The translations under genes and the position numbers were made by a program. Below the pieces are notes generated by a model. The model was not told where the DNA came from, searched no databases, and saw nothing but the letters and a program-made list of their open reading frames with translations. From positions 737 to 64,736 of the forward strand of contig JBGPOW010000001.1 in assembly GCA_041488235.1 (NCBI GenBank): 64,000 nucleotides of DNA, given 5' to 3'. Numbering within the stretch: position 1 is the stretch's first letter; every line of letters starts with the position of its first letter. The DNA comes from Candidatus Binatia bacterium (lineage in GTDB: Bacteria > Desulfobacterota > Binatia > UTPRO1). This document shows, in pieces, positions 7,167 to 33,306 of the stretch.

Positions 7167-8765
7167 CTATCGCAACGACCGTCGTGAGCGCCGCGGCCGC
7201 GATCCCCAGCCACCGCCTCCTGGCGTCTCGATCCGCAGCACGTCTCCGCGTCGCACCCGCACGTTGACCTTCCCGGGGAGCGCTCGCCAACGGCCGGCGT
7301 GGGCGAGGAAGTTTCGGCCCGCGCTACCCGTCGCGCCGCCGGCGAGGCCGTACGGGCCTCGTCTTCGGCGCTCGGTCAGGAGCGTCAGATCGGCGTCGGT
7401 GAGAAACCGCAGCTCGCGGACGATGCCATCGCCGCCCGGATTTCGACCCCCGCCACCGCTGCGCCGACGGATCGCGTAGCGCTCGACGCGCAACGGGTAG
7501 TAGCTCTCCAACGCTTCGATGGGTGTGTTGAGGGTGTTCGTCATATGCGTGTGCACCGCCGACGCGCCGCTGCCGCTCGGCCCGCCGCCGGCACCGCCCG
7601 CGAGCGTCTCGTAATACGAGAAGGCGCGACCGCGAACGTCGTCGAAGCCGCCGACCGCGACGTTGTTCATCGATCCGGCGCTCGCAGCCGGAATCCGTTC
7701 GGGCGCCGCCTTCGCGAGCGCGCGTAACAAGACGTCGACGATGCGTTGCGAGGTCTCGACGTTGCCGCCGGCGACGGCGGCGGGAAACTCGGCGTTCACC
7801 ACGGTCCCGCTGGGGGCGACGACCCGGATGCGCTCGAGCAAGCCTTCGTTCGCCGGAATCGGGTCCTGTGCGAGGGCGGTGAAGACGTAGAACACCGCCG
7901 ACAGCGTGATCGCGTAGTTGGCGTTCAGGCTTCCCTGCACCTGCGGCGCTGTGCCCGTGAAATCGACGAGCGCCCGCCCGTCGCGGATCGTGATCGCAAC
8001 GCGAATCGGAACGTCGCGCGCGTCGAGACCGTCGTCGTCGAGGACATCGACCGCGGTGTAACGCCCCGGAGGCAACGTACGGAGCGTCGTCGCGATCAAT
8101 CGCGCGGTGTACCGTTGCAGCGCCGCCATGCCGCGATGGAGACGCGCCGCGCCGAACGTGGACGCGAGATCGCGGACGCGGCGGGCACCGATCGCGAGTG
8201 CGGCGCGTTGCGCGTCGAGATCGCCACGACGCTCCTCTGGCACGCGCGTGTTGGCGAGAAAGAGCGTGAGAATGTCGCGCTCGAGTACGCCACGCCGGAC
8301 GAGCCGCACCGGCGGCATGCGAAATCCTTCTTGGTGGATCTCGCGCGCGAGCGGCATCGAGCCGGGACTCATGCCGCCGATGTCGGCATGGTGCGCACGG
8401 TCGGCGACGAATCCGAGGAGCCGCCCGCGCGCGTCGTGCGCCGGCGCGACGAGCGTCACGTCCGGCAGGTGGGTGCCGCCCGCATACGGGTCGTTCAGCA
8501 CGACGACGTCTCCTTGCGCCAAGCGGAAAGCGGCGAGCGCCGCGCGCACCGACAGCGGCGTCGAGCCGAGATGCACCGGCACGTGGGCCGCGTGGGCGAC
8601 CATTCGTCCTGCGGGATCGAAGACGGCGCATGAGAAGTCGTACCGCTCCTTGATGTTCGGAGAGAAGCCGCTGCGCCCGAGGACGACGCCCATCTCGTCG
8701 GCGATCGCGGCGAGTCGGTGATGGAGCACCGCGAGCGCGATCGCATCGAACCCGCGCACGCTCAT
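7167..8765 (-). CDS. hyuB: Hydantoinase B/oxoprolinase family protein
   Basis: MSVRGFDAIALAVLHHRLAAIADEMG...SPNIKERYDFSCAVFDPAGRMVAHAAHVPVHLGS is the canonical HyuB N-terminus. ATG at 8765 overlaps the hyuA stop (ATGA). Confidence 0.85.
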   Translation of the reverse strand: MSVRGFDAIALAVLHHRLAAIADEMGVVLGRSGFSPNIKERYDFSCAVFDPAGRMVAHAAHVPVHLGSTPLSVRAALAAFRLAQGDVVVLNDPYAGGTHLPDVTLVAPAHDARGRLLGFVADRAHHADIGGMSPGSMPLAREIHQEGFRMPPVRLVRRGVLERDILTLFLANTRVPEERRGDLDAQRAALAIGARRVRDLASTFGAARLHRGMAALQRYTARLIATTLRTLPPGRYTAVDVLDDDGLDARDVPIRVAITIRDGRALVDFTGTAPQVQGSLNANYAITLSAVFYVFTALAQDPIPANEGLLERIRVVAPSGTVVNAEFPAAVAGGNVETSQRIVDVLLRALAKAAPERIPAASAGSMNNVAVGGFDDVRGRAFSYYETLAGGAGGGPSGSGASAVHTHMTNTLNTPIEALESYYPLRVERYAIRRRSGGGGRNPGGDGIVRELRFLTDADLTLLTERRRRGPYGLAGGATGSAGRNFLAHAGRWRALPGKVNVRVRRGDVLRIETPGGGGWGSRPRRSRRSLR

Positions 8766-18752: not shown

Positions 18753-19645
18753 GCCGCGACCTCGACGCGCTTGCGATCGGCGTCGACACGCAACGGCACG
18801 CCGAGTGTGATCGGCAGGTTCTCCGAGAGATGACCGGCGGGAAACCCGGCGACGACCGGATACGGCGCGTCGGCGAAGAATTCGCGGAAGACCGCCGCCG
18901 CCACGTTCCCCTCCTCGTGGCCGTCGCAGTCGGCGAACGATCCGAGCACGACCGCCGCGACGCGCTCGAGCTTCCCCGCAAGGCGCATTTGCGTGAGCAT
19001 GCGATCGAGCCGGTACGGCCGCTCGGCGATGTCCTCGAGAAAGAGCACGGCGCCGTCGGTCTCGACCGCGTACGGCGTGCCGAGGAGCGCCACGAGCGAC
19101 GAGAGACAGCCGCCGACGACCGGCCCCGTCGCGACGCCGGGCGCGATCGCTTCGGGGACCGGCTCGCTCCACGGCGCCGCCGGCGCCGCGAGGAGCGCTT
19201 GCCAGCGTGCCGCTGCACGCGCCGTCACGCCCTTGGCGAAGTCGATCGCCACCATCGGCCCGTGCAGCGCAACGACGCCCGAGCGGGCGACGATGAACCC
19301 CAGGAGCGGCGCCACGTCGCTGTAGCCGCAGACGAGCTTCGGATGCCGCGCGAAGAGCTCCGGGTCGAGGAGCCGCATCACCTGCACCGATCCGTAGCCA
19401 CCGCGCGCGCAGATGACGGCGGCGACGTCCGGATCCTCGACCATGCGCGTGAGGTCCCACGCGCGCTCTTGCGCGGTGCCGGCACAGTAGCGATGGCGTG
19501 CGAGGACGTGCTCGCCGACGCGCACGCCGAATCCCCAGTTGCGCAGCAGCGCGAGTCCGCGGTCGAGCGCGTCCGGCTTGACGACGCCGGCGGGGGCGAC
19601 GACGCCCAACGTCGCGCCTTGCGCGACCGCTCGCGGGATGATCAT
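18749..19645 (-). CDS. ldcA: LD-carboxypeptidase (muramoyltetrapeptide carboxypeptidase, peptidase S66)
   Basis: ATLGVVAPAGVV...ICARGGYGS...VCGYSDVAPL...HG...E matches the S66 catalytic pattern. ATG at 19645. Confidence 0.8.
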   Translation of the reverse strand: MIIPRAVAQGATLGVVAPAGVVKPDALDRGLALLRNWGFGVRVGEHVLARHRYCAGTAQERAWDLTRMVEDPDVAAVICARGGYGSVQVMRLLDPELFARHPKLVCGYSDVAPLLGFIVARSGVVALHGPMVAIDFAKGVTARAAARWQALLAAPAAPWSEPVPEAIAPGVATGPVVGGCLSSLVALLGTPYAVETDGAVLFLEDIAERPYRLDRMLTQMRLAGKLERVAAVVLGSFADCDGHEEGNVAAAVFREFFADAPYPVVAGFPAGHLSENLPITLGVPLRVDADRKRVEVAA

Positions 19646-23603: not shown

Positions 23604-24047
23604 TCAGCTCCCCGGGCGCCGCGCCCGGGGGGCTTTTTCGTCCGCGCTCGAACTGAGCGCGCCGATCGCGACTGCCGCCGCGACGAGCGCCGTGTCGCGC
23701 GCGACCGTGAGCACCGTCACCGGCGCACGCACGCTTCCGAAGCACCCGCAGTCGAGGTTGATGTCGCGGGCGAGCGCCTGCACTGCAGCGACGGTAAACG
23801 CGACGAGAAGTGCGGTCGCGAGGACGGCGGCGGCACGGACAGTGCGGGGATACAAAAGCCCGAGCCCGCAGACGATCTCGACGCCCGGCACCGTCGCCGA
23901 GAACGGCGCCACCAAAGGCGCCGGCAGCAGTCGATAGTTCGCGACGTCGGCGGCGAACGCACGGACGTCCGCGAGCTTTGCGACGCCCGCGTAGAGAAAG
24001 AGTGCGGCGAGCACCGTGCGCAGCAACCACCAGGAGATCACGCGCAT
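23604..24047 (-). CDS. MauE/DoxX-family membrane protein
   Basis: Four TM helices, the CGCFG motif and VPGVEIVCGLGLL. Confidence 0.7.
   Translation of the reverse strand: MRVISWWLLRTVLAALFLYAGVAKLADVRAFAADVANYRLLPAPLVAPFSATVPGVEIVCGLGLLYPRTVRAAAVLATALLVAFTVAAVQALARDINLDCGCFGSVRAPVTVLTVARDTALVAAAVAIGALSSSADEKAPRARRPGS
23610..23638 (+). terminator. Rho-independent terminator after groEL
   Basis: CCCCGGGCGCCGCGCCCGGGGGG stem-loop followed by CTTTTT. It overlaps the 3' end of the convergent MauE/DoxX gene. Confidence 0.6.
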
Positions 24048-24063
24048 CGCTTGCGGCTACGGG

Positions 24064-24531
24064 TCAGTTGCAGATTTCGCACGGCCCGGACGCGGCGCTC
24101 CCGCCGCCGTCACGCCAGGCCCGGAAGCCGCCGCTCAGGACACGCACGTCGCCGTACCCGCTCGCGGCGAGCGACTGCGCGACGGGACCCGGGTCGGCGT
24201 CCTCGCCGCCGTACAGGACGACGGTCGAAGATTTCGCGACGCTCGCCAGCCACTCTGGCGCCTCGGCGCTGCACGGCAAGTGCACGGCGTCGACGACGTG
24301 CCCGACGGCATATTCTGATGCGCCGCGCACGTCGCCGAAGATCGCTTCGTGTGCTTCCAGGAGGCGTATCGCCGCCGCGACGTCGATGCGCGCAGGCTCC
24401 AAGGACGCCATCGCGCACTCCGCGGTGCCTTCGGTTTCGGCAACCCAGGACCGCAGCACCGAGACGCCGGCCGGGTGCAGCGAGTTCACACAGAGCCCGA
24501 GGAGCGCCCCTGCGGTGGCGAGCGTGAGCAT
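24064..24531 (-). CDS. Rhodanese-like domain protein with signal peptide
   Basis: Internal ATG at 24531. MLTLATAGALLGLCV signal peptide. A rhodanese fold is inferred from DVRGASEYAVGHVVDAVHLP...VVLYGGED...GYGDVRVLSGGFRAW, although the catalytic Cys position reads ...YGGED rather than a canonical CxxGxR loop. Pairs with the MauE/DoxX gene. Confidence 0.7.
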   Translation of the reverse strand: MLTLATAGALLGLCVNSLHPAGVSVLRSWVAETEGTAECAMASLEPARIDVAAAIRLLEAHEAIFGDVRGASEYAVGHVVDAVHLPCSAEAPEWLASVAKSSTVVLYGGEDADPGPVAQSLAASGYGDVRVLSGGFRAWRDGGGSAASGPCEICN

Positions 24532-24744
24532 CTGCAATACCGTGCGCACCGTCCCGCATTGTCGCGTCCCGAGGCGCGACTCGCAACTCCGACGGGCGAT
24601 CGGTACGGCGTTGACGGACGAAGCCCGCCATTGCGTCACGTACGGGGAGCAAAACCAGCCAGTACCAGGCCAACCCGGCCCGAAATAGGCCGTCACCAAG
24701 CGGCGACGCATGAGCATCGTAGAGACGATCAAGAACGCGGTAAC

Positions 24745-24966
24745 TCAGCTCGCGCCGTCGAGCCCGAGATCATGGGCGAGCCGCTTCGGAATGACGAGCG
24801 TCCCCTGGTCGCCGGGAGACCGCACGTCGCTGGTGCGGTCGATCAAGTGCAGCGGCACGCCAATGCGTCGCCGGTCGGGCAGCTCGCAGATCAGGACGAG
24901 CCCGTTACTCACGGCACGGACGTGCGCCACGCGCACGAGATCGGAAACGGGGGAATCGTACAGCAT
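24745..24966 (-). CDS. Hypothetical small protein (73 aa), family unresolved
   Basis: The ORF sits between the rhodanese gene and the CheY-like regulator. Its C-terminus TLVIPKRLAHDLGLDG is loosely AbrB/SpoVT-like. Confidence 0.25.
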   Translation of the reverse strand: MLYDSPVSDLVRVAHVRAVSNGLVLICELPDRRRIGVPLHLIDRTSDVRSPGDQGTLVIPKRLAHDLGLDGAS

Positions 24967-25077
24967 AGTGGACCTGCTTCCTTGCAGAGGTTCCTAGCGC
25001 CTCCCCGCGCCCCTCAACCCGCCCCAATTCCGGCGAGAGATGTACTCCGAAGCGGGAAGGAAAAACTACGCGGATCT

Positions 25078-25524
25078 CTACGCGCGTAGCGTTGATCCTG
25101 CGGTGAACTGGGCGGGCGCGCGCTGACGTTCGCAGTGCCGGTCGACGGCCGCGACCACATCCGGCCCGTCGATCGGCTTCAGTAGAAACTCCCGAATGCC
25201 GACTTTCTTCGCCCGAGCATCATCCGCCACATCGCCGGACAGAATCACGACCGGAGTTTTCACGACCTCGGGGTGAGCCTTCATGCGCTCCCAGACCGTC
25301 CAGCCGTCCATCCCCGGCATGCGTACATCGAGGAGGATAACGCACGGTCGAAGGCCCGCCTGCAGCATGTCAAGCGCTTCCGGTCCCGACGCCGCTCCGA
25401 CCACATCGAAGCCCATCGCCTGAAGCAACGTGACAATCGCCTCCCGGGTGTCCGTATAGTCATCGACGACCAGCACGTTGTGGCGAGAGTGGATCTCGTG
25501 GGACACCCCCGATTGCGTCGGCAT
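25078..25524 (-). CDS. Single-domain response regulator (CheY-like receiver)
   Basis: VLVVDDYTDTREAIVTLLQAMGFDV...ILLDVRMPGMDGWTVWERMK...VILSG...K. Confidence 0.75.
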   Translation of the reverse strand: MPTQSGVSHEIHSRHNVLVVDDYTDTREAIVTLLQAMGFDVVGAASGPEALDMLQAGLRPCVILLDVRMPGMDGWTVWERMKAHPEVVKTPVVILSGDVADDARAKKVGIREFLLKPIDGPDVVAAVDRHCERQRAPAQFTAGSTLRA

Positions 25525-25643
25525 GCTTCGGGCCTAGTCGTGGGGCGGGTGCTAGTCAAAACGCGGCGAGGACACGTGCGCGTGGTCCGTTGCCGCACCG
25601 CCCATGGTCCTATCGGTGCTATGGACGCTGCCCACAGTAGTCA

Positions 25644-25710
25644 AATCCGAGCACTCACCCGCTGAAAACCGAGCACTCGACGTCCTGGCCGACCAACTCC
25701 GAGCAGTACT
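25644..25710. repeat. Array of three AATCCGAGCAC / CCGAGCAGTAC motifs with about 22-bp spacing. It is the left boundary of the accessory island and is inverted relative to the array at 27831-27889.
   Basis: aaatccgagcactc at 25644, aaaaccgagcactc at 25666, ctccgagcagtac at 25698. Confidence 0.5.
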
Positions 25711-25905
25711 TGACGATGAGGAGGGTCGGAGCCCTGGCGTCCATCGCGCCGACCGACGACCAGGGCAATCAAGCAAAGGGCCGCTGCTTGCACCCTGGCA
25801 GGTCAGCGCAGCGGCCCGTGGTCGGTTCTTTGGTTCAACGCACCCTGCCCACGGCTGGAACCGTGGGCAGGGCCGAACACCGAGTGGTGGACCACCCGAT
25901 GCCCG

Positions 25906-26962
25906 TTGCAGCTACGGATTCTGGTCCGCCACTTGGGGAAAGACAAGTGGCCCGTGAACGTCCTCTCGTCTGAGAAGCAAACCCGCGTGATCGCCGCTCT
26001 CACTGAAGGCTGCTCCGTCCGCGCGACCGAGCGTCTGACCGACGTGCATCAGGAGACGATTCTCAACCTGAGCCGCCGCGTCGGCGAGGGCTGCCACCGT
26101 CTCCTCGACGGCATGCTCCGTGGCCTTCAGGTCGGCGTGATCGAGCTCGACGAGCAGTGGTCGTTTATCGGCTGCAAGCAGAAGAACGTCCGCGACGGCG
26201 AGCGCGAGCGCGGCGACTCGTGGCTCTTCATCGCGCTCGATGCGACTAGCAAGGCCGTCCTCAGCTACCGCATCGGCAAGCGCACGACGCAGAACACGAT
26301 GGCGCTCGCGCAGGACTTGCACGCGCGGCTCGTGAACCGGCCGCAGATCACGGCCGATGGATTCGTGCCCTACGTCAACGCCATCGCCGACGTGTTCGAC
26401 CGCAAGGTGGACTTCGCGCAGCTCATGAAGCACTACGGCACGCCGGCCGGAAACGAGGCGGCGGTGCGCTACTCCCCGGGCTCCATAAGAGGCATCGAGA
26501 AGCAGGTCGTCTGCGGCGCACCCGACGAGACGAAGATCAGCACCTCGTACGTCGAACGCTTCAACCTCTCGACGCGGATGCACCTCCGGCGCTTCACGCG
26601 GCTCACGAACGCGTTCTCGAAAAAGCTCGCGAACCACCGCGCGGCGATCGCGCTGCACCTTGCGTACTACAACCTGGTGGCGCATCCACGAAACGATCCG
26701 CTGCACGCCCGCGATGGCGCTCGGCGTGACCGATCATCCGTGGACCGTGGCCGAGCTGGTCGAGGCGGCGCTCAGCGCGCCGGAACCGACGCCGCTCCTT
26801 CCGACGCAGCCGCCGCTCCCGTTCGGCATGAGCGCCGGGCGCGCGAAGGGTACGTGGGGCGGTGCGCTCGCGGATCGGCCGAGGCCGACCAAGAACAAGG
26901 GCAACCCTGGGCCGAAAAGATTCCGGGTGATCAAGGGCGGGCGCGATCGCGCGGGGTCGTAG
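25906..26962 (+). pseudogene. IS1-family transposase (InsAB-like fusion), frameshifted near the C-terminus
   Basis: IELDEQWSFIG..WLFIALDATSKAVLSYRIGKRT..ITADG..STSYVERFNLSTRMHLRRFTRLTNAFSKKLANH aligns block-by-block with E. coli IS1 InsB. The frame breaks after ...AYYNLV (ORF 25906..26985) and resumes in ORF 26660..26962 (RIHETIRCTPAMALGVTDH...KRFRVIKGG). The intact paralog at 29014..30045 reads through in a single frame. Confidence 0.7.
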
Positions 26963-27089
26963 CCCCTGCGCGGGGCAATCCTTGACGCTAGCAAGTGCTG
27001 TGCTACGCTTCGATCGAATTGCTGAGCAATCAACTCCTCGTAGTTGAATGGACTTTGGGCGCAGGGCATAGTCGTCGGTAGGAGGCCAG

Positions 27090-27329
27090 ATGCATTCAGA
27101 CTTCCTTTTCGCCCGCCCTTCCAGACTCGCAGGATTGGCGCGTCTACTCGATTTCTTCGGGACGTTCGACGACTACAACACGAGTCCGTCACGCCCGCTC
27201 GCTGACGCGCGCGCGGTATATACTGACTGGGTCGTTACGGCAGACGACATTCGCAACGCGATGGCCGCCGTGAAGGCGCTGGAGCGTGACCCAAGTCAGG
27301 GCGAGTTATTCCCAGCAGTCGCTGGGTAG
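27090..27329 (+). CDS. Hypothetical protein (79 aa), coupled to the DUF2335 gene
   Basis: Its TAG stop directly abuts the ATG of the next gene (gggTAGATGagc). No family recognised. Confidence 0.35.
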   Translation: MHSDFLFARPSRLAGLARLLDFFGTFDDYNTSPSRPLADARAVYTDWVVTADDIRNAMAAVKALERDPSQGELFPAVAG

Positions 27330-27767
27330 ATGAGCAAGAAGGGCCGGGACCGGCAACTCGCTCATCAGCGTCAGCAGATCACTGCTCAGCGGCGCCTTGA
27401 GATCTTCCAGGGTCCGCTTCCCTCTCCCGACGTCCTGATTCGCTACAACGATGCGGTTCCTAACGGAGCTGAGCGTATCCTTGTCATGGCCGAAGGGCAG
27501 GCGACTCACCGTCAGGGGCTGGAGCGCGCTGTCGTCAACGGCAACATCCGAGCGCAGGCCCGCGCTCAGCGCTACGGGCTAGTAATCATCCTTGCGGTCG
27601 TCGCTGTTGGCGCGTGGCTGATGTCGCAGGGAAAGGACGGCTACGGGTTCGGTACGATCCTCGCGGGACTCGCCAGCCTCGTAGGCGTGTTCATGTGGGG
27701 CCGGTATCGCCAAGAACGTGAACGGCGGGAAAAGGCAGAGCAGTTTCAAGGCTCACCCGTCGGATAG
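27330..27767 (+). CDS. DUF2335-family membrane protein
   Basis: GPLPSPDVLIRYNDAVPNGAERILVMAEGQATHRQGLE... followed by two TM helices, which fits my recollection of DUF2335. Confidence 0.55.
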   Translation: MSKKGRDRQLAHQRQQITAQRRLEIFQGPLPSPDVLIRYNDAVPNGAERILVMAEGQATHRQGLERAVVNGNIRAQARAQRYGLVIILAVVAVGAWLMSQGKDGYGFGTILAGLASLVGVFMWGRYRQERERREKAEQFQGSPVG

Positions 27768-27830
27768 AGCGTCGCGACTTCCCGCTACGACTCACGACGG
27801 CGAACGGCAATCGCGCTGTTGGCGTTAGGT

Positions 27831-27972
27831 GGTCGGATTCGCCCGCGTCACGGGGGTGCTCGGATTTGACGCCCAGGGTGCTCGGATTCGGCGGCGCGAC
27901 GGCCAGAACCGAGCAGTACCCGACTAGCGGTACTGTCCTAACTAGGACACCCGCGGATTGAAAGTAGGACAC
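27831..27972. repeat. Repeat-rich junction with three GGTGCTCGGATT motifs of about 22-bp period, the 15-bp CAGTACCCGACTAGC repeat, the palindrome GTCCTAACTAGGAC and two TAGGACAC iterons
   Basis: ggtcggattc at 27831, ggtgctcggattt at 27855, ggtgctcggattc at 27877, gagcagtacccgactagc at 27911-27928, gtcctaactaggacac at 27935-27950, taggacac at 27965. Confidence 0.55.
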
Positions 27973-28099
27973 TCGCGTCTACTGGCCAAAATCGGGGGGG
28001 CCGTTTTTTCCTCGACGGCCACCCCTCGACCGTGGCACCCTGCGCGCACCAAATCTCGGCCGCCCCCGTCGGGCCCCCTAACGCCAGGAGGATTAGCCC

Positions 28100-28942
28100 A
28101 TGTTCCGCGTCTCTCGTCTGCTCGTCGCCGCCTCGCTCACACTCGCCGCTGCGTCGCCCGCGCGCGCCGGAACGCTCAAGTGCCCCGCCGACTCGGTGAA
28201 GGTCGGCAACGCCTGCATCGACCTCTACGAGACCAGTGTCTGGCAGATCGCCCCGTCAAACACGTCCCTCGTCAAGGCGGTGCAGAAAGGCAAGGCGACG
28301 CTCGCCACCCTGACTGCGGGCGGCGCCGTGCAGCTCGGCTGCACCTTCGCACCATTCAGTCAGACGGCCTATCCGACGAATTTCCCGAATAGCGGCCAGT
28401 GGACGCCGGTCCTCGGATCGGTGCCGCCGAGCCCGGGCGTCTACGCGGTCTCGATCCCCGGCGTGCTGCCGAGCTCGTGCATCACCTGGTTCCAAGCGGC
28501 ACAGGCGTGCGGCGTCTCGGGGAAGCGTTTACTCACGAATCTTGAGTGGCAGAATGCGGCGGCGGGGACGCCCGATCCGGGAACGGACAACGGCACGACG
28601 GACTGCAACATCTCCACCGCCGGCAACCCGGTGAACACCGGATCGCGATCGAACTGCAAGTCGAGCTGGGGCGCGTTCGACATGGTCGGCAACGTCGACG
28701 AGTGGGTGGCGGATTGGGCGGATCTCAACACGACGGGCTGCACCGATTCGACGACCTTCTTCGGCTTCGCCGGCACCGGTGATCAAATATGTTTCGGCGG
28801 GGACGGTAGTCCGAAAGCTCCGGGGGCGTTGCGTCGCGGCGGCATTTGGGTCAGCGGCGCGGGCGCCGGCGTCTTCTCCGTGAATGCCGCCTTCGGTCCG
28901 GCGTTCTCGTTCCTCAACGTCGGGTTCCGCTGTGCCCGCTGA
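28100..28942 (+). CDS. Secreted FGE-sulfatase/SUMF1-domain protein (formylglycine-generating-enzyme family)
   Basis: Signal peptide MFRVSRLLVAASLTLAAASPARA. C-terminal FDMVGNVDEWVADW...RGGIW...GFRCAR, the hallmark ending of the SUMF1/FGE fold. Confidence 0.7.
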   Translation: MFRVSRLLVAASLTLAAASPARAGTLKCPADSVKVGNACIDLYETSVWQIAPSNTSLVKAVQKGKATLATLTAGGAVQLGCTFAPFSQTAYPTNFPNSGQWTPVLGSVPPSPGVYAVSIPGVLPSSCITWFQAAQACGVSGKRLLTNLEWQNAAAGTPDPGTDNGTTDCNISTAGNPVNTGSRSNCKSSWGAFDMVGNVDEWVADWADLNTTGCTDSTTFFGFAGTGDQICFGGDGSPKAPGALRRGGIWVSGAGAGVFSVNAAFGPAFSFLNVGFRCAR

Positions 28943-29000
28943 GTCGTCCCGGGCTTTGGCCCTTTGACAGTTTGATCTTTGGCTCTCCTCGGGTGTGGAG

Positions 29001-29032
29001 GGGCGGGCGGCTGTTACGGCTGCCGCCCGCCC
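29001..29032. terminator. GC-rich hairpin (11-bp stem) overlapping the stop of the second IS1 transposase, between the FGE gene (+) and the transposase gene (-)
   Basis: GGGCGGGCGGC-tgttacggct-GCCGCCCGCCC. No T-run. Confidence 0.3.
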
Positions 29033-30045
29033 TTGATCACGCGGAAGCGTTTCGGTCCTAGATTACCGCGCGTCTTGTTCGGCCGCGGGCGATCCGCCAG
29101 CGCGCCGCCCCAGGTGTTCTTCGCGCGACCGGCGCTCATGCCTCTGATCGGCTCCGGCGCGGGCGCCATCGGCGGCGCCGTCGGCGCGCTCAACGCCGCG
29201 TCGATCAACTCGCCGATCGTCCACACGTGGTCAGTGATGCCGAGCGCCATTGCAGGCGTGCAGCGCAACGCCTCGTGGACGCGGCAGAGATTGTAGTGGG
29301 CGATGTGCAGCGCAATCGCGGCCTGGTGATTCGCGAGCTTCTTCGAGAAGCCGTTCGTCAGGCGCGTGAACCGGCGTGACGCCATCCGCGTCGTCAAGTT
29401 GAAACGCTCGACGTAGCTCGTGCTGATCTTCGTGGGGTCTGGGTCGCCCTGAAGCACGGTGCGCTCCGTGCTTCTTATCTTGCCCGGTGAGTAGCGAACC
29501 GCGGCCTCGTTTCCGATCGTCACGGCGTAGTTCTTCACGATGGTCGCGAAGTCCACGTCGTCGCCGAACGCGCGCTCGATTGCATCGGGGTACGCGGACC
29601 AGCCGTCCGCCGTGATCTGCGGCCGGTTGAGCACCCGTGCGCGGAGATCGGAGACGATGGCGCGGGTGTTCTCGGTGCTGCGCTTCCCGACGACGTACGT
29701 CAGGACGGCCTTGCTCGTCGCATCGAGCGCGAGGAACAAGTAGCAGTCGCCGTATTCCTTCGGATCTTCGGGGCGGACGCGCTTCGCCTTCTTGAACAAA
29801 AACGACCAGCTCTCATCAAGCTCGATTACGCTGACCTGAAGGTTGCGGAGCATGCCGTCGAGCAGCCGACGGCATCCGTCGCCGACCTGGACGCCGAGCC
29901 GCATCACGGTGTCGCGGTGCGTGTCGGTCAGGCGCTCCGTCGCGCGGATCGAGCAACCTTCCGTCAGCGCGCCGACGATGCGGGTTTGGGTCTCACGAGA
30001 GAGGGTATTCACGGGTGTTGCCTTCCTCCGAGGGGCGACCCACAA
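29014..30045 (-). CDS. IS1-family transposase (InsAB-like fusion), apparently intact
   Basis: 343 aa with an HTH N-terminus (TRIVGALTEGCSIRATERLTD) and IELDESWSF...YLFLALDATSKAVLTYVVGKRS...ITADGWSAYPD...STSYVERFNLTTRMASRRFTRLTNGFSKKLANHQAAIALHIAHYNLCRVHEALRCTPAMALG... It is about 70% identical to the frameshifted copy by eye and lies in the opposite orientation. Confidence 0.8.
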   Translation of the reverse strand: MWVAPRRKATPVNTLSRETQTRIVGALTEGCSIRATERLTDTHRDTVMRLGVQVGDGCRRLLDGMLRNLQVSVIELDESWSFLFKKAKRVRPEDPKEYGDCYLFLALDATSKAVLTYVVGKRSTENTRAIVSDLRARVLNRPQITADGWSAYPDAIERAFGDDVDFATIVKNYAVTIGNEAAVRYSPGKIRSTERTVLQGDPDPTKISTSYVERFNLTTRMASRRFTRLTNGFSKKLANHQAAIALHIAHYNLCRVHEALRCTPAMALGITDHVWTIGELIDAALSAPTAPPMAPAPEPIRGMSAGRAKNTWGGALADRPRPNKTRGNLGPKRFRVIKGGRQP

Positions 30046-30089
30046 TCGAAGCGTCTGACGGCATCGGGTGGGTAACCGCTCGGTGTTGG

Positions 30090-30125
30090 CCCCGCTCTCG
30101 GCTCCAACCGGGAGCGGGGTTTTTG
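30090..30125 (+). terminator. Rho-independent-type terminator (CCCCGCTC...GAGCGGGG + TTTTT) in the IS left end, oriented to block plus-strand read-through
   Basis: 8-bp stem, 14-nt loop, T5 run. An equivalent position in copy 1 has a hairpin without a T-run. Confidence 0.4.
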
Positions 30126-30219
30126 TTTGCGGTCCACTTGCTCACGAGACGAATGTTGCCACATTCGTCCTACGTAGTCAAGCGTTGACGCCGTAGGCTT
30201 TCTGTGGCAACAATCGTCC

Positions 30220-30387
30220 ATGCCTAAACCCAAACGAAAGCCGAAGGCCCTCCGGAAAGAGGACTCCATTCGGATTCGCGTCTCGGCCGAGCAAAAAAAG
30301 ACGCTGACGGCCGCTGCCGAGCGGGCGGGCCTGGACGTGTCGTCCTGGCTCCGCACGCTCGGCATGCGGGAGGCCGCTAGCGGCTAA
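30220..30387 (+). CDS. Small ribbon-helix-helix protein (CopG/MobC-like), 55 aa. Not in the ORF track because it is shorter than 60 aa.
   Basis: ATG at 30220 gives MPKPKRKPKALRKEDSIRIRVSAEQKKTLTAAAERAGLDVSSWLRTLGMREAASG, a classic RVS..EK..L...A...G.S.S.WLR pattern. A TTGACG -35-like element lies about 30 nt upstream. Confidence 0.5.
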   Translation: MPKPKRKPKALRKEDSIRIRVSAEQKKTLTAAAERAGLDVSSWLRTLGMREAASG

Positions 30388-30651
30388 GCCCGCGTCTTCT
30401 CACGCCCCAGCGGCGGATCTTCGTGCGATACGTACTGATCCACGCGGGCGTGATGCCGGCCATCCACCTGAGTACCCGTGCTCTCATGGGTACACCTCCA
30501 CCTCTTCAAAAAGGCGGCGGAATGTGGAAGGATCGCGGTTAGTTGGTTCTTCCGCGAGCTTCGTTTCCCGTCGCTCGTTGCAGTTCTGGCGAACTGCGTG
30601 CCGAGGTCTTGAACACCTCGGCACGCATCGCCGCTCCCGCCCAGCAGCAAA

Positions 30652-30855
30652 CTAAGTCACGGCCTCGTTGACACCTCCGTTTCGCGCGCCTCGATGCGCG
30701 CGAGTTTTCTCGCGGATGGCCTTCTGCACCGCGTCGGCAACGAAGGCTTCCATGGTCGTGTCGCATCGCGCGGCGACGATCTTGACCTCGTTGCGGAACG
30801 ATTTGCTAACCCGGACGGCGAGCAGGACCGCGTGTTGTTCGGACTTCATACCCAT
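30652..30855 (-). CDS. Small ribbon-helix-helix-like DNA-binding protein (67 aa from an internal ATG)
   Basis: MGMKSEQHAVLLAVRVSKSFRNEVKIVAARCDTTMEAFVADAVQKAIREK shows a beta-strand plus two-helix RHH pattern. The track ORF extends to 30936, but that start would collide with the divergent gene at 30935. A perfect 10-bp-stem hairpin GTGCCGAGGT/ACCTCGGCAC lies about 30 nt downstream. Confidence 0.4.
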   Translation of the reverse strand: MGMKSEQHAVLLAVRVSKSFRNEVKIVAARCDTTMEAFVADAVQKAIREKTRAHRGARNGGVNEAVT

Positions 30856-30934
30856 ACCCTCGCACAGTCTGACGGGTAACTCTAGCTTTTTAGCCGTCAG
30901 GTGATACCGTCTGACGCAGAAAAGTAACGCGCAC

Positions 30935-31843
30935 ATGGCCGAGTCCAGTCAGACACGTGGAAACGAGCGGCGAACCGACGCGATGCATTCGCTTGCGCGC
31001 GCCGTCGCGTTCGCCAATCTCGACTTGGAATGCCCGGAAGCGCAGTGGGAAACGCAACGCCACATCGTCGGCACTAAGGCGACGCCGCTGCGCGTACTCT
31101 GCCACTTTCGATTCCCGGATGAATTCGGGCGCGCTTTGCGGATGCCACCCGGCGGTCGCGAGGCCAAAGTGACGAGCGGTCCCCGGCAGCTCGTGCCGAT
31201 TGACCTGCTCGACACTGAAGACCCGCTGGAAGCGCAGCGCCACATGCGCACGCTCCTCACGGACATCATCACGGGCAACTCGCGCGGCGTCATCGCCGCG
31301 TTGCAGTCGGTCACGGTTTCCGTCCGTATGGGTGTCGCGATGGCCCGCGACGACACGAAGCGGTCCCGGCCATCACGGCGTCATCCGTCGCTGGACGTGT
31401 GGTATGAGTCGCCGCTCGGCTACGACGAGCTGCGCTACGGTGTCGTGCTCGGTGGGGTCGCTACGCTCTATCACCGCCTCGGCCGATGCCGGTCGTGCAA
31501 TCGGTTCATCCTCGCCAAGACCGACCGTCCAGTACGGTACTGTGCTAACCGGGAGTGCCAGCCGCGCGGAGCGCCCAAGCCGCGCGGAAAGGCGCCGAGC
31601 GTAACAGCCGGCTACAAGCGCCAACAGCGCGCGCGGCAACAGCGGTGGGACGAGCATCGCGACCGCATGCGAGCGGCGTTGAACGGCACGCCGTCCGTGC
31701 GCGGCCTCACGAAGCTCGTGCGCCAGGGAGAACGACTGTTGGAGGAGTGCTTCCGGTGGAAGGAGTCACCAGCGCGGAAAGATGCGGCGCGCGTGCTGGA
31801 TCAAGCCCGCGACCGAATTAGGACACTCGGAGCTTCAACTTAG
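30935..31843 (+). CDS. Hypothetical 302-aa protein with a C4 zinc ribbon (CRSCNRF...YCANRECQ) and a basic C-terminal region
   Basis: Long clean ORF. No family recognised. Its last codons and stop lie inside the TAGGACAC iteron array. Confidence 0.5.
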   Translation: MAESSQTRGNERRTDAMHSLARAVAFANLDLECPEAQWETQRHIVGTKATPLRVLCHFRFPDEFGRALRMPPGGREAKVTSGPRQLVPIDLLDTEDPLEAQRHMRTLLTDIITGNSRGVIAALQSVTVSVRMGVAMARDDTKRSRPSRRHPSLDVWYESPLGYDELRYGVVLGGVATLYHRLGRCRSCNRFILAKTDRPVRYCANRECQPRGAPKPRGKAPSVTAGYKRQQRARQQRWDEHRDRMRAALNGTPSVRGLTKLVRQGERLLEECFRWKESPARKDAARVLDQARDRIRTLGAST

Positions 31844-31880
31844 GACACTGGCGGGGAAGATAGGACAGTACCCGACTAGC
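31819..31880. repeat. Three TAGGACA(C/G) iterons at 22-bp spacing followed by the 15-bp direct repeat CAGTACCCGACTAGC. Right boundary of the island.
   Basis: taggacac at 31819 and 31841, taggacag at 31861, cagtacccgactagc at 31866-31880. The same 15-mer occurs at 27914-27928. The palindrome GGTCCTATAGG follows at 31906. Confidence 0.55.
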
Positions 31881-31920
31881 ATTTGCGTTGACTTACCGGG
31901 CGACGGTCCTATAGGTTTTC

Positions 31921-33306
31921 GTGTTTTCGTCCGGCGCTCGGGTGCGCCGTACCGATACCATCGTGTTCGACACTCTCGGCGACAAGCTCGACCTCGTTTT
32001 CAAGCGGCTCCGCGGCCACGGCCGCATCACCGAGCGCCACATGACGGAAGCCCTGCGGGAGATCCGCATGGCGCTCCTCGAGGCCGACGTCGCACTCCCG
32101 GTCGTGCAAACGTTCGTCGAGCGCGTTCGCGAGCAGGCGCTCGGTCAGGAGGTGCTGCGCAGCCTGACGCCGGAGCAGCACTTGGTGAAGTTCGTGCACC
32201 AAGAGCTCACGCGCACGATGGGAGGCGAGACCACCGTCCTCGACCTCGGCGCACCGCCGCCCGTCGCCGTCATGCTCGTCGGGCTGCAAGGATCCGGCAA
32301 GACGACGACGGCCGCGAAGCTCGCGCGGCACCTGAAGACGGAGAAGGGTCGCCGGCCGTACCTCGTCCCCGCTGACGTGTATCGGCCAGCGGCGATCGAG
32401 CAGCTGACGACGCTCGGGCGGCAGATCGGCTGCCCCGTGCACCCCTCGACCGCCGACATGGATCCCGTCGAGATCGCGCGCGCGGCGCAGGCGGCGGCGC
32501 GCTCGCAGAACCTCGACACCCTCATCCTCGACACCGCCGGGCGGCTGCACATCGACGACGAGCTCATGGCCGAGCTCGAGCGGATCAAGGCCGCGATCAC
32601 GCCGAAGCACGTGCTGCTCGTCGCCGACGCGATGACCGGCCAGGACGCGGTGAACGTCGCGCAGGGATTCCACGAGCGCCTCGCGATCGGCGGGGTCGTG
32701 CTGACGAAGCTCGAGGGCGACGCCCGCGGTGGCGCGGCGCTCTCGATCCGCGAGATGAGCGGCGCGCCGATTTATTTCGTCGGCGTCGGCGAGAAGCTCG
32801 AGGCGCTGGAGCCGTTCTATCCGGACCGCATGGCGTCGCGGATCCTCGGCAAGGGCGACATCCTTTCTCTCATCGAAAAAGTCGAGAAGGCGTACGACCA
32901 TCGTCAAGCGGAAGCGCTCGAGAAGAAGCTCCGCAAGAACGAGTTCACGCTGGAGGACTTTCGCGATCAGCTGCAAATGGTGAAGCGCCTGGGCTCCATG
33001 GGCGAGATCCTCGGCATGATCCCGGGTATGAAAAAGCTCACGTCCAAGCTCGATCCGGGCGTGGCGGACGCCGAGCTGAAAAAAGTCGAGGCGATCGTCA
33101 ATTCCATGACGAACCAGGAGCGACGAAACGACGCGATGATCAACGGCAGCCGGCGTAAACGCATCGCGCTCGGCAGCGGAACCAGCGTCGCCGACGTGAA
33201 TCGCTTCCTGAAACAATATGCACAGACAAAAAAGATGATGAAACAACTCACCAAGCTCGGTCGGCCGGGCGGTGGTAATCCGTTTTCACAGCTGATGCCC
33301 GGCTGA
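31921..33306 (+). CDS. ffh: Signal recognition particle protein Ffh
   Basis: ...VMLVGLQGSGKTTTAAKLA...DTAGRLH...C-terminal M-domain. The true start may be the GTG at 31963 (VFDTLGDKL). Confidence 0.9.
   Translation: MFSSGARVRRTDTIVFDTLGDKLDLVFKRLRGHGRITERHMTEALREIRMALLEADVALPVVQTFVERVREQALGQEVLRSLTPEQHLVKFVHQELTRTMGGETTVLDLGAPPPVAVMLVGLQGSGKTTTAAKLARHLKTEKGRRPYLVPADVYRPAAIEQLTTLGRQIGCPVHPSTADMDPVEIARAAQAAARSQNLDTLILDTAGRLHIDDELMAELERIKAAITPKHVLLVADAMTGQDAVNVAQGFHERLAIGGVVLTKLEGDARGGAALSIREMSGAPIYFVGVGEKLEALEPFYPDRMASRILGKGDILSLIEKVEKAYDHRQAEALEKKLRKNEFTLEDFRDQLQMVKRLGSMGEILGMIPGMKKLTSKLDPGVADAELKKVEAIVNSMTNQERRNDAMINGSRRKRIALGSGTSVADVNRFLKQYAQTKKMMKQLTKLGRPGGGNPFSQLMPG

Follow-up and report, generated by a model that had tools for sequence, protein, structure and literature searches.

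IS1 was one of the earliest insertion sequences on record, and the family named after it is generally regarded as minimal, with one short inverted repeat (IR) at each end. Its members share the terminal signature GGnnnTG recorded in ISfinder, and adjacent deletions or rearrangements anchored at an end of the element are classical IS1 behaviour. The ISMhu11 subgroup of this family comprises long elements of up to ~4.6 kb with extra genes. Here, we analyse a 64,000-nucleotide stretch of contig JBGPOW010000001.1 from a Candidatus Binatia bacterium (hereafter, the window), in which a sequence-only reading had noticed that arrays of a short motif bracket about 2.25 kb of DNA (25644-27889) in inverted orientation. 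That reading had also described the genes between the arrays correctly, namely a frameshifted IS1-type (PF03400) transposase gene, here called tnpA, orf79, which has no family match, and an open reading frame (ORF) for a 145-aa DUF2335 protein.

From comparison of sequences, we consider it very probable that the 11-bp motifs, at subterminal and terminal positions alike, serve as transposase-binding sites in a cargo-carrying subgroup of the IS1 family, and that the 2.25-kb stretch is a dead, rearranged relic. The genes belong to an element, A, that consists of tnpA, orf79, the DUF2335 gene and a right end; no left end of its own can be recognised any longer. The 2.25-kb stretch, a fossil that can no longer move, sits in a 7.3-kb pile-up of members of the subgroup, located between a rhodanese gene and the promoter of ffh.

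Motif arrays and the ends of an IS1-family subgroup

Both arrays are real and far beyond chance. Inside each of them, two copies of the motif are 22 bp apart, and the third lies at a distance of 27 bp in the right array and of 31-33 bp in the left one (Table 1). Read directly, some copies start one base away from where they had been placed (25698, 27855 and 27877), and the second left-hand copy has one mismatch, so that there is no exact second copy on that side. The earlier reading had overlooked CCGAGCAGTACC (T3), a fourth site on the right that is oriented the other way; it is identical to the third left-hand site (T2) at 11 of 12 positions, with an extended similarity of 76% over 25 nt. 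The arrays also share a perfect 15-bp IR (25640-25654 and 27856-27870) and a 33-nt repeat at 73%. Allowing at most one mismatch to ATCCGAGCAC, the window contains 3 same-strand pairs of sites 20-28 bp apart, against a mean of 0.007 in 300 first-order Markov simulations, which is ~400-fold above expectation. A stricter site pattern gives 12 matches in the 64 kb, with 9 of them within 25394-27906 and 3 outside.

Such repeats are not a feature of classical IS1 ends, as had been pointed out, and the sequence-only reading suggested that a transposon end system could have been captured together with passenger genes. The arrays are not such a foreign system but belong to the ends that are native to an entire IS1-family subgroup, represented by 23 elements flanked by target-site duplications (TSDs). 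Homologues of TnpB, the transposase of the intact element B that lies beside A, number more than 7,700, and most of their named sources are Binatia or "delta proteobacterium" metagenome-assembled genomes (MAGs). We surveyed 51 genome loci with a script that sought terminal IRs starting GG[TC][AG]C and perfect TSDs around the transposase gene, and both were found at 22 further loci, with a TSD of 8 bp in every verified case. One pairing made by the script was rejected, as at locus L038 (5890-8902, 7-bp TSD) the left end of a 70-bp mini-element had been mispaired with the right end of the main element; in the final statistics (n = 23), L038 was replaced by L180, which also has a perfect 8-bp TSD. 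The 23 elements are 2.4-8.6 kb long and have the terminus GG(T/C)(A/G)CTG, the GG start of which was required by the screen and is hence partly a selection criterion and not an independent finding.

The ends of these elements follow a common plan. Each has a terminal site with the cleavage terminus and usually two more copies of a 9-11-bp motif. At the left end (IRL), upstream of the transposase gene (tnp), these copies have the same orientation as the terminal site and lie at ~26/48 or 36/58 in 19 of the 23 elements. At the right end (IRR), downstream of tnp and read inward, they are inverted and lie at ~15/37 or 25/47 (21/23 elements). The distance between neighbouring subterminal copies is 22 bp, or about two turns of the helix, in 29 of 38 pairs. 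From these rules it follows that the subterminal arrays of an intact element are direct repeats, and that only its termini are inverted.

Some further observations concern these ends. The sole element with end types swapped relative to tnp, L031 548-5956, is on a contig labelled as an Aenigmatarchaeota MAG, and the swap may reflect either an internal inversion or a lineage of opposite layout. At many right ends, the first inverted copy makes up a near-perfect 16-bp palindrome together with the terminal site, such as TGTCCGAATTAGGACA (window 27929-27950; also the right ends of L015, L016, L039 and L042), an arrangement that suggests a transposase dimer at the right end only; the right end of A is without this close pair.

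A hairpin is found ~80-110 nt upstream of tnp in L007, L009, L012, L027, L034, L036 and L048 (~7880-7920), and in the window upstream of both tnpB (30088-30131, + strand) and tnpA (25843-25872). The hairpin of B scores as an intrinsic terminator with a T-run on the strand antisense to tnp, and the stem shows compensatory changes across 9 loci (alignment A3), as judged by eye. RNAalifold applied to the pooled tnp upstream regions, a set in which two subfamilies are mixed, returned 3 pairs, and an Rfam search of 24000-32500 gave sub-threshold matches only, including small RNA matches at the terminator hairpin. A conserved terminator on the antisense strand suggests that an antisense RNA may cover the 5′ region of tnp and take part in its control.

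The right end of element A fits the plan seen in 21 of the 23 elements, with a terminal site and inverted subterminal copies downstream of tnp. That the CCGAGCAGTACC site is the terminus of A follows from the TSD of B, which abuts it directly, and a strain-variable junction falls exactly at 27920/27921; the true boundary is thus 27920, beyond the 27889 proposed earlier. The right array together with T3 aligns collinearly to the IRRs of two relatives (alignment A4), of which L183 (transposase 84% identical) has the same 33/55 offsets as A and L180 (85%) differs by a 12-nt deletion. The transposase gene of A has a 1-nt insertion near 26676 that throws the conserved C-terminal 90 residues out of frame, and in tblastn the match of TnpB to tnpA breaks at residues 242/244 into two frames. 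This frameshift is identical in three independent contigs or assemblies (L001-L003), and the relatives P0014, P0033 and P0036 are uninterrupted at the site of the lesion (...AYYNLVRIHETIRC...). It is a +1-nt mutation near the C-terminus and is not at the insA/insB′ site.

In a further Binataceae MAG (L053 9031-9249), a homologue of the orf79 protein (46% identical) is encoded ~0.9 kb downstream of the remnant of a transposase C-terminus, and orf79, perhaps with the DUF2335 gene, may be cargo that recurs with the IS1-family subgroup. A metagenome-wide search with the pattern GTGCTCGGNTTN{10,12}GTGCTCGG returned at least 120 loci; the matches listed were all due to chance, and among them there was no IS1 transposase, no GGTACTGCTC terminus in context and no homology to the island.

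Element B, in contrast to A, is intact. Its termini form a perfect 12-bp IR (GGTACTGTCCTA / TAGGACAGTACC, GGTACTG / CAGTACC), and its subterminal repeats, TAGGACAC, are located at 27943, 27965, 31819 and 31841, 22 bp apart and all on the + strand at both ends (6 motif matches against 0.7 expected). Homology between tnpA and tnpB is limited to the stretch from the upstream hairpin to the stop codon. Contig L001, 99.9% identical to the window, runs to 27928 and jumps to 31866, so that it is without 27929-31872 and has a single copy of CGACTAGC. An exact-sequence look-up of TnpB gave no match, and the homology database contains a 332-aa protein identical to it (P0001). No match to a Pfam ATPase family was found for the five ORFs of B.

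Two side observations were made within B. The sequence AGTACGGTACTGTGCTAACCGGGA, at 31531-31554 in orf302, resembles the left terminus of B, CGGTACTGTCCTAACTAGGA, at 85% over 20 nt; it could be an older end now buried in B, or the resemblance may have arisen by chance. Just upstream of the gene for a NikA-like ribbon-helix-helix (RHH) protein, RHH1, a 34-nt imperfect palindrome at 30148-30218 overlaps the sole sigma-70-like promoter match (30185-30214) and is probably the operator of this RHH protein.

Table 1. Features of the island, in window coordinates (T, terminal site; S, subterminal site)
Feature	Position	Strand	Remarks
Decayed IRR relic	24592-24666	+	75 bp; collinear with other IRRs; degenerate S sites (alignment A4)
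T1, terminus of the relic, AAACCAGCCAGTACC	24652-24666		15/15 identical to the IRR terminus of intact L180
orf73	24745-24966	-	No Pfam match; body side of left array
Response-regulator receiver protein	25078-25524	-	PF00072, E=4.8e-22; body side of left array
Left array, IRL-type end	25644-25710	-	T2 at 25699-25710; same-orientation sites at 25666-25676 and 25644-25654
Left array, copy 1, AATCCGAGCAC	25644-25654
Left array, copy 2, AAACCGAGCAC	25666-25676		1 mismatch
Left array, copy 3, CCGAGCAGTAC	25699-25709
Junction region	25711-25842	+	Possible decayed remains of A's own left end; tentative
Hairpin upstream of tnpA	25843-25872	-	Perfect 12-bp stem; A/B homology begins here
tnpA, IS1-family DDE transposase pseudogene	25954-26962	+	PF03400, E=4.3e-12, 46.9 bits
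orf79	27090-27329	+	Cargo of A; no family match
DUF2335 membrane protein (145 aa)	27330-27767	+	Cargo of A; PF10097, E=2.5e-14
IRR of element A	27829-27920	+	Three subterminal sites, all inverted relative to T3
Right array, copy 1, GTGGTCGGATT	27829-27839		1 mismatch
Right array, copies 2 and 3, GTGCTCGGATT	27856-27866; 27878-27888
T3, true right terminus of A, CCGAGCAGTACC	27909-27920
8-bp TSD of B, CGACTAGC	27921-27928; 31873-31880		First copy abuts A's terminus directly
Element B, intact IS1-family cargo transposon	27929-31872	-	3944 bp
FGE-sulfatase-domain protein	28100-28942	+	Element B
tnpB	29014-30012	-	Element B; PF03400, 40.1 bits; intact paralogue 2 kb right of tnpA
NikA-like RHH (RHH1)	30220-30387	+	Element B; PF21983, 33.2 bits (cut-off 27)
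Second RHH-like ORF	30652-30849	-	Element B; weak match to RHH-antitoxin family
orf302	30935-31843	+	Element B

The pile-up upstream of ffh and the history of the left array

In four relatives with Ffh proteins 87-95% identical to that of the window (L175, L177, L178 and L179), the rhodanese gene is directly followed by ffh. Their homology to the window ends at ~24591 and resumes at ~31885, which leaves an island of ~24592-31884. The same spacer is empty in L175 and L177 and contains unrelated members of the subgroup in L176 (549-2900) and L180 (4449-10847). It is an insertion hot spot for at least three lineages, directly upstream of the promoter of an essential gene (TTGACTT...TATAGG at ~31888-31915 in the window). 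At the other edge of the island, the rhodanese ORF (24064-24732) has an N-terminal extension of ~52 residues (217-222 aa in total) running into the transposon relic; its relatives are 159-165 aa long, with an ATG start codon equivalent to 24559-24561.

Insertion directly beside a resident end is seen repeatedly. The 8 bp beside the terminus of A are empty in L001 and are followed by B in the window and by a different element (GGTGCTGGCCGG...) in L003 (4277-4311), a near-identical metagenome contig in which the 8-bp site precedes a different family end, GGTGCTGGCCGGGTTTCC. This is an independent reuse of the site; contig L002 stops right at the terminus of A (4396). In L038 (5873-5975 and 8880-8915), one end is followed by CCACCACC, the 70-bp mini-element, CCACCACC again and the next element. 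This MITE-like (miniature inverted-repeat transposable element) insertion consists of two terminal regions only (GGTACTGGCCTAA...TTAGGCCAGTACC) and has CCACCACC as its 8-bp TSD. Two elements are likewise placed tail-to-tail with an 8-bp spacer in L183.

The left array is an end of the IRL type, and its orientation is not the one expected of a partner for the right end of A. When reverse-complemented, it aligns without gaps to the IRL of L180, with the terminal site at 1 and subterminal sites at ~36 and 58 (alignment A4), a geometry also found in L021 and L048. On the minus strand T2 reads AGTACTGCTCGG (AGTACTG), with AG in place of the terminal GG because the outer G is lost. The array has its terminus at the right, so the element to which it belongs must extend to the left, and since the array faces rightward into the 2.25-kb unit, it cannot be the partner of the right end of A. 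The inverted arrays at this locus are thus a sign of rearrangement.

To the left of this array, where the body of its element would be, are orf73 and a gene for a response regulator, both absent between rhodanese and ffh in the four relatives. Because the homology of those relatives stops at ~24591 and resumes at ~31885, the two genes are inside the inserted island and are not host genes, and they are likely to be transposon cargo. The L183 contig, past its tail-to-tail end junction, encodes a response regulator with 39% identity to that of the island (E=7e-21); it is presumably also cargo, of a neighbouring element that is cut by the contig end. Further to the left, the island starts directly after T1, the terminus of a decayed IRR, and the 22-nt sequence GGGAGCAAAACCAGCCAGTACC persists as a scar in L178 and L179, where the site is empty apart from it. 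A tblastn search of the window found no third transposase gene to which the left array could belong.

The history that we favour is that two abutting elements of the same type lost complementary halves. Relatives would have inserted repeatedly into the 8 bp next to the end of a resident element, as B did beside A, and end-anchored deletions or decay would then have removed the inner halves. We favour it because an S-like site in the orientation of the left end of A survives at 25818-25828, because abutting insertions are demonstrably common in this IS1-family subgroup and because adjacent deletions anchored at an end are what IS1 classically produces. The surviving site, GTGGTCGGTTC, has the orientation expected for the IRL of A (strict pattern match at 25819), and a weak S-like site, GGTCGGAG, is found at 25724-25731, beginning 14 bp past T2. 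The region that contains both (25711-25842) has no homology to element B and may, from these traces, be the decayed remains of the left end of A.

Another history, which we consider unlikely, is the inversion of part of a single element. Element A would originally have spanned 24667-27920 (3254 bp) in the order IRL, response regulator, orf73, hairpin, tnpA, orf79, DUF2335 and IRR, and its left arm (24667-25710) would later have been inverted in place, bringing the IRL terminus beside the upstream region of tnpA. Without B, the island indeed contains exactly one IRL, one IRR and one transposase gene, which share a single rare motif type, and if 24667-25710 is turned back, the terminus of the IRL comes to lie directly after T1, precisely on the boundary of the island that was defined independently; moreover, a size of 3.25 kb and cargo upstream of tnp are typical of the subgroup. 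However, no inverted 8-bp duplication is present at the breakpoints, where T1 is followed by AGGCCAAC and T2 by TGACGATG. In addition, the S-like site at 25818-25828 suggests that 25711-25842 is decayed left-end DNA, which an inversion would not predict, and no NikA-like RHH gene or operator is found at the place where intact relatives have one.

A candidate reader of the motif

The motif differs by lineage (TGTCCTAA, TGGCTTAA, TGTCTTAA, TGGCGTCA and TGGCCTAA, with TGCTCGGATT in A), and its class tracks residues 30-42 of the transposase. Elements with TGTCCTAA have HRDT.MRLGV at this position, those with TGGCTTAA or TGTCTTAA have NRNTIMSLG and those with TGGCGTCA have ERNT.GRLAL, while the TGCTCGGATT of A is accompanied by HQETILNLSR. 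An AlphaFold model of the transposase, built with 22 sequences, has an overall predicted local distance difference test score (pLDDT) of 54.5, with 82-89 for residues 1-55, in which helices are predicted at 6-17, 22-29 and 33-57. These helices place residues 30-42, which covary with the motif, in the turn and at the start of helix 3 of a helix-turn-helix (HTH); from this covariation and the model, we infer that the N-terminal HTH of the transposase would bind the motif. The earlier suggestion that the arrays could be sites for an element-encoded regulator would be nearly right were that regulator the N-terminal HTH of the transposase itself.

The mechanism that we propose is as follows. The N-terminal HTH of the single-ORF transposase would read the motif, and several protomers would load cooperatively on one helical face of each end, where the asymmetric polarity of the arrays would tell left from right. 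The terminal protomers would cleave at the GG/CC terminus, integration would use an 8-bp stagger and target capture would occur near resident ends.

It is improbable, in our view, that the subterminal repeats are operators with a regulatory or architectural role, bound by an accessory protein such as the NikA-like RHH and not by the transposase. This idea draws on the PF21983 match of RHH1 (Table 1) and on the fact that genes for its homologues are found in at least 8 loci upstream of tnp, divergent from it on the opposite strand and ending ~210-360 bp before its start. Nevertheless, the terminal site, which is cleaved, has the same motif as the subterminal sites, and the motif tracks the HTH of the transposase. 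Element A keeps its arrays, although a tblastn screen showed no homologue of the RHH of B in it, and L040 keeps the inverted right-end copies with a left terminus only 43 bp from tnp. For its part, RHH1 of B has a separate palindrome, described above, over its own promoter.

Very improbable, too, is the reading from which this analysis started, namely that a single 2.25-kb transposon has the inverted arrays as its two ends, which either work or did so until recently. The arrays do share the same motif, the same 22-bp phasing, the 15-bp perfect IR and the 33-nt repeat, and the degenerate site past T2 makes a unit of ~2.2 kb (25719-27920) conceivable, with a left end different from the one first proposed. 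Against this, the subterminal arrays are direct and not inverted in 22 of the 23 elements, the GGTACTG terminus is always outermost and the left array has its terminal site (25699-25710) on the inner, right-hand side. The real right terminus lies outside the unit and tnpA is frameshifted; the window encodes one further transposase, TnpB, which differs from that of A in its recognition helix and in its motif. No TSD flanks the unit in either register, with CCACAGTA against GCCCAGGG around 25640-27870 and AGTAGTCA against CGGCGGCG around 25644-27888. Finally, it is hardly credible that the arrays have nothing to do with mobility and are sites for a host regulator or repeats that arose by chance, since the isolated exact copies of ATCCGAGCAC in coding sequence at 18940 and 61722 are set against phased pairs far above expectation, clusters of sites in the island only, the same architecture at the TSD-flanked termini of 23 elements and a strain-variable junction exactly at the terminal site.

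Several points weigh against our own reading of the arrays as transposase-binding ends in a rearranged relic. The exact A-type motif (CCGAGCAC) has no second copy in the 51 species-representative loci or in the contigs of the closest relatives of TnpA (77-85% identity: L180, L181, L183 and L186), which use related but different motifs, GTGGTCGG or GTGGCCGG; element A was thus not seen in an intact form. The subterminal offsets of the IRR of A are 33, 55 and 82, and the commonest offsets in the family are 15/37 or 25/47, although L183 has the 33/55 geometry in common with A. No matching duplications support either the inversion or the abutting-remnant history of the left array: with CGACTAGC as the sequence after T3, the TSD tests made for these two histories and for the 2.25-kb unit gave no match, the best being 4 of 8 positions (TGACGATG against CGACTAGC). 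The assignment of the HTH leans on a covariation that is confounded by shared ancestry, and the structural model behind it is good for residues 1-55 only.

Significance and comparison with known systems

Our broader proposal, which we put forward tentatively, is that these elements, found here mainly in Binatia-type MAGs, form an undescribed subgroup of IS1-derived cargo transposons. It would be characterised by polar, phased, multi-site ends in which the subterminal sites share one direction across the element and the downstream terminal site alone is flipped, by a motif that co-diversifies with the HTH into mutually non-cross-reacting lineages and by a preference for the 8 bp abutting resident termini, which builds up layers of elements at hot spots like the promoter of ffh. 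A family regarded as minimal would then include a large environmental branch that has cargo and phased, polarity-coded site arrays and in which newcomers repeatedly settle beside resident ends. It is also suggested that end complexity similar to that of Tn7 and Mu has evolved independently on an IS1 chassis, and the subgroup offers a natural set of matched pairs of transposase HTH and site motif for the study of how specificity diverges. For annotation, there are two lessons: inverted subterminal arrays in this IS1-family subgroup indicate a rearrangement and not an intact element, and the true boundary of its elements is the GGTACTG terminus.

Membership of the IS1 family is indicated by the PF03400 scores of TnpA and TnpB (46.9 and 40.1 bits, against a gathering score of 24.1) and by homologues named "IS1 family transposase". 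For the NCBIfam model NF033558 (transpos_IS1), the two proteins score 74.9 and 65.9 bits, below the cut-off of 100, with only the first ~150 residues aligned, which marks them as a divergent IS1 subgroup. The GGTACTG termini of the A and B type, including the CAGTACC of the IRR of A, fit the IS1 signature, and the 8-bp TSD falls within the 8-9 bp of IS1. In other respects, the elements depart from IS1. TnpB and all its close relatives are encoded by a single ORF of ~315-335 aa, whereas IS1 has insA/insB′ with a programmed -1 frameshift; the elements reach 2.4-8.6 kb with cargo, compared with 768 bp in IS1; and they have three phased sites at each end, with opposite polarity rules, in place of one IR of ~23 bp. 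The present elements, at up to 8.6 kb, exceed the size range of the ISMhu11 subgroup, for which neither this end architecture nor abutting insertion is known to have been described. A literature search found nothing relevant on IS1-family elements with passenger genes or subterminal repeats, nor on ISMhu11.

Insertion beside inverted repeats is also known from elements of the IS30, IS21 and IS911 type, and the junctions seen here, in which one end, a short spacer and another end follow each other (window 27909-27940, L003, L038 and L183), are similar in form. In contrast to those systems, however, the spacer is the 8-bp TSD of the newcomer itself, and the junctions join different members of the subgroup, often tail-to-tail.

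The sequence-only reading had compared the arrays with the ends of Tn7 and Mu. This comparison holds for the functional resemblance, that is, for multiple helically phased subterminal repeats at transposon ends, but it does not extend to the transposase, which is of the IS1 type. Tn7, with its 22-bp TnsB sites, Mu, with L1-L3 and R1-R3, and Tn402/Tn5053 all have several transposase sites per end, of which the terminal one is cleaved, and their left and right ends differ; the same is found here at the level of sequence architecture. Unlike Tn7 and Mu, the present elements have a DDE transposase of the IS1 type with a small HTH instead of TnsB or MuA, an 8-bp TSD instead of 5 bp and subterminal sites that all point one way. 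Nor is a TnsB/MuA-type transposase with an AAA+ regulator (TnsC/MuB) found, as the other ORFs of B match an FGE-sulfatase domain, a NikA-like protein, weakly an RHH antitoxin or nothing. By analogy, then, ends of the Tn7/Mu type appear to be the closest functional counterpart of the ends described here.

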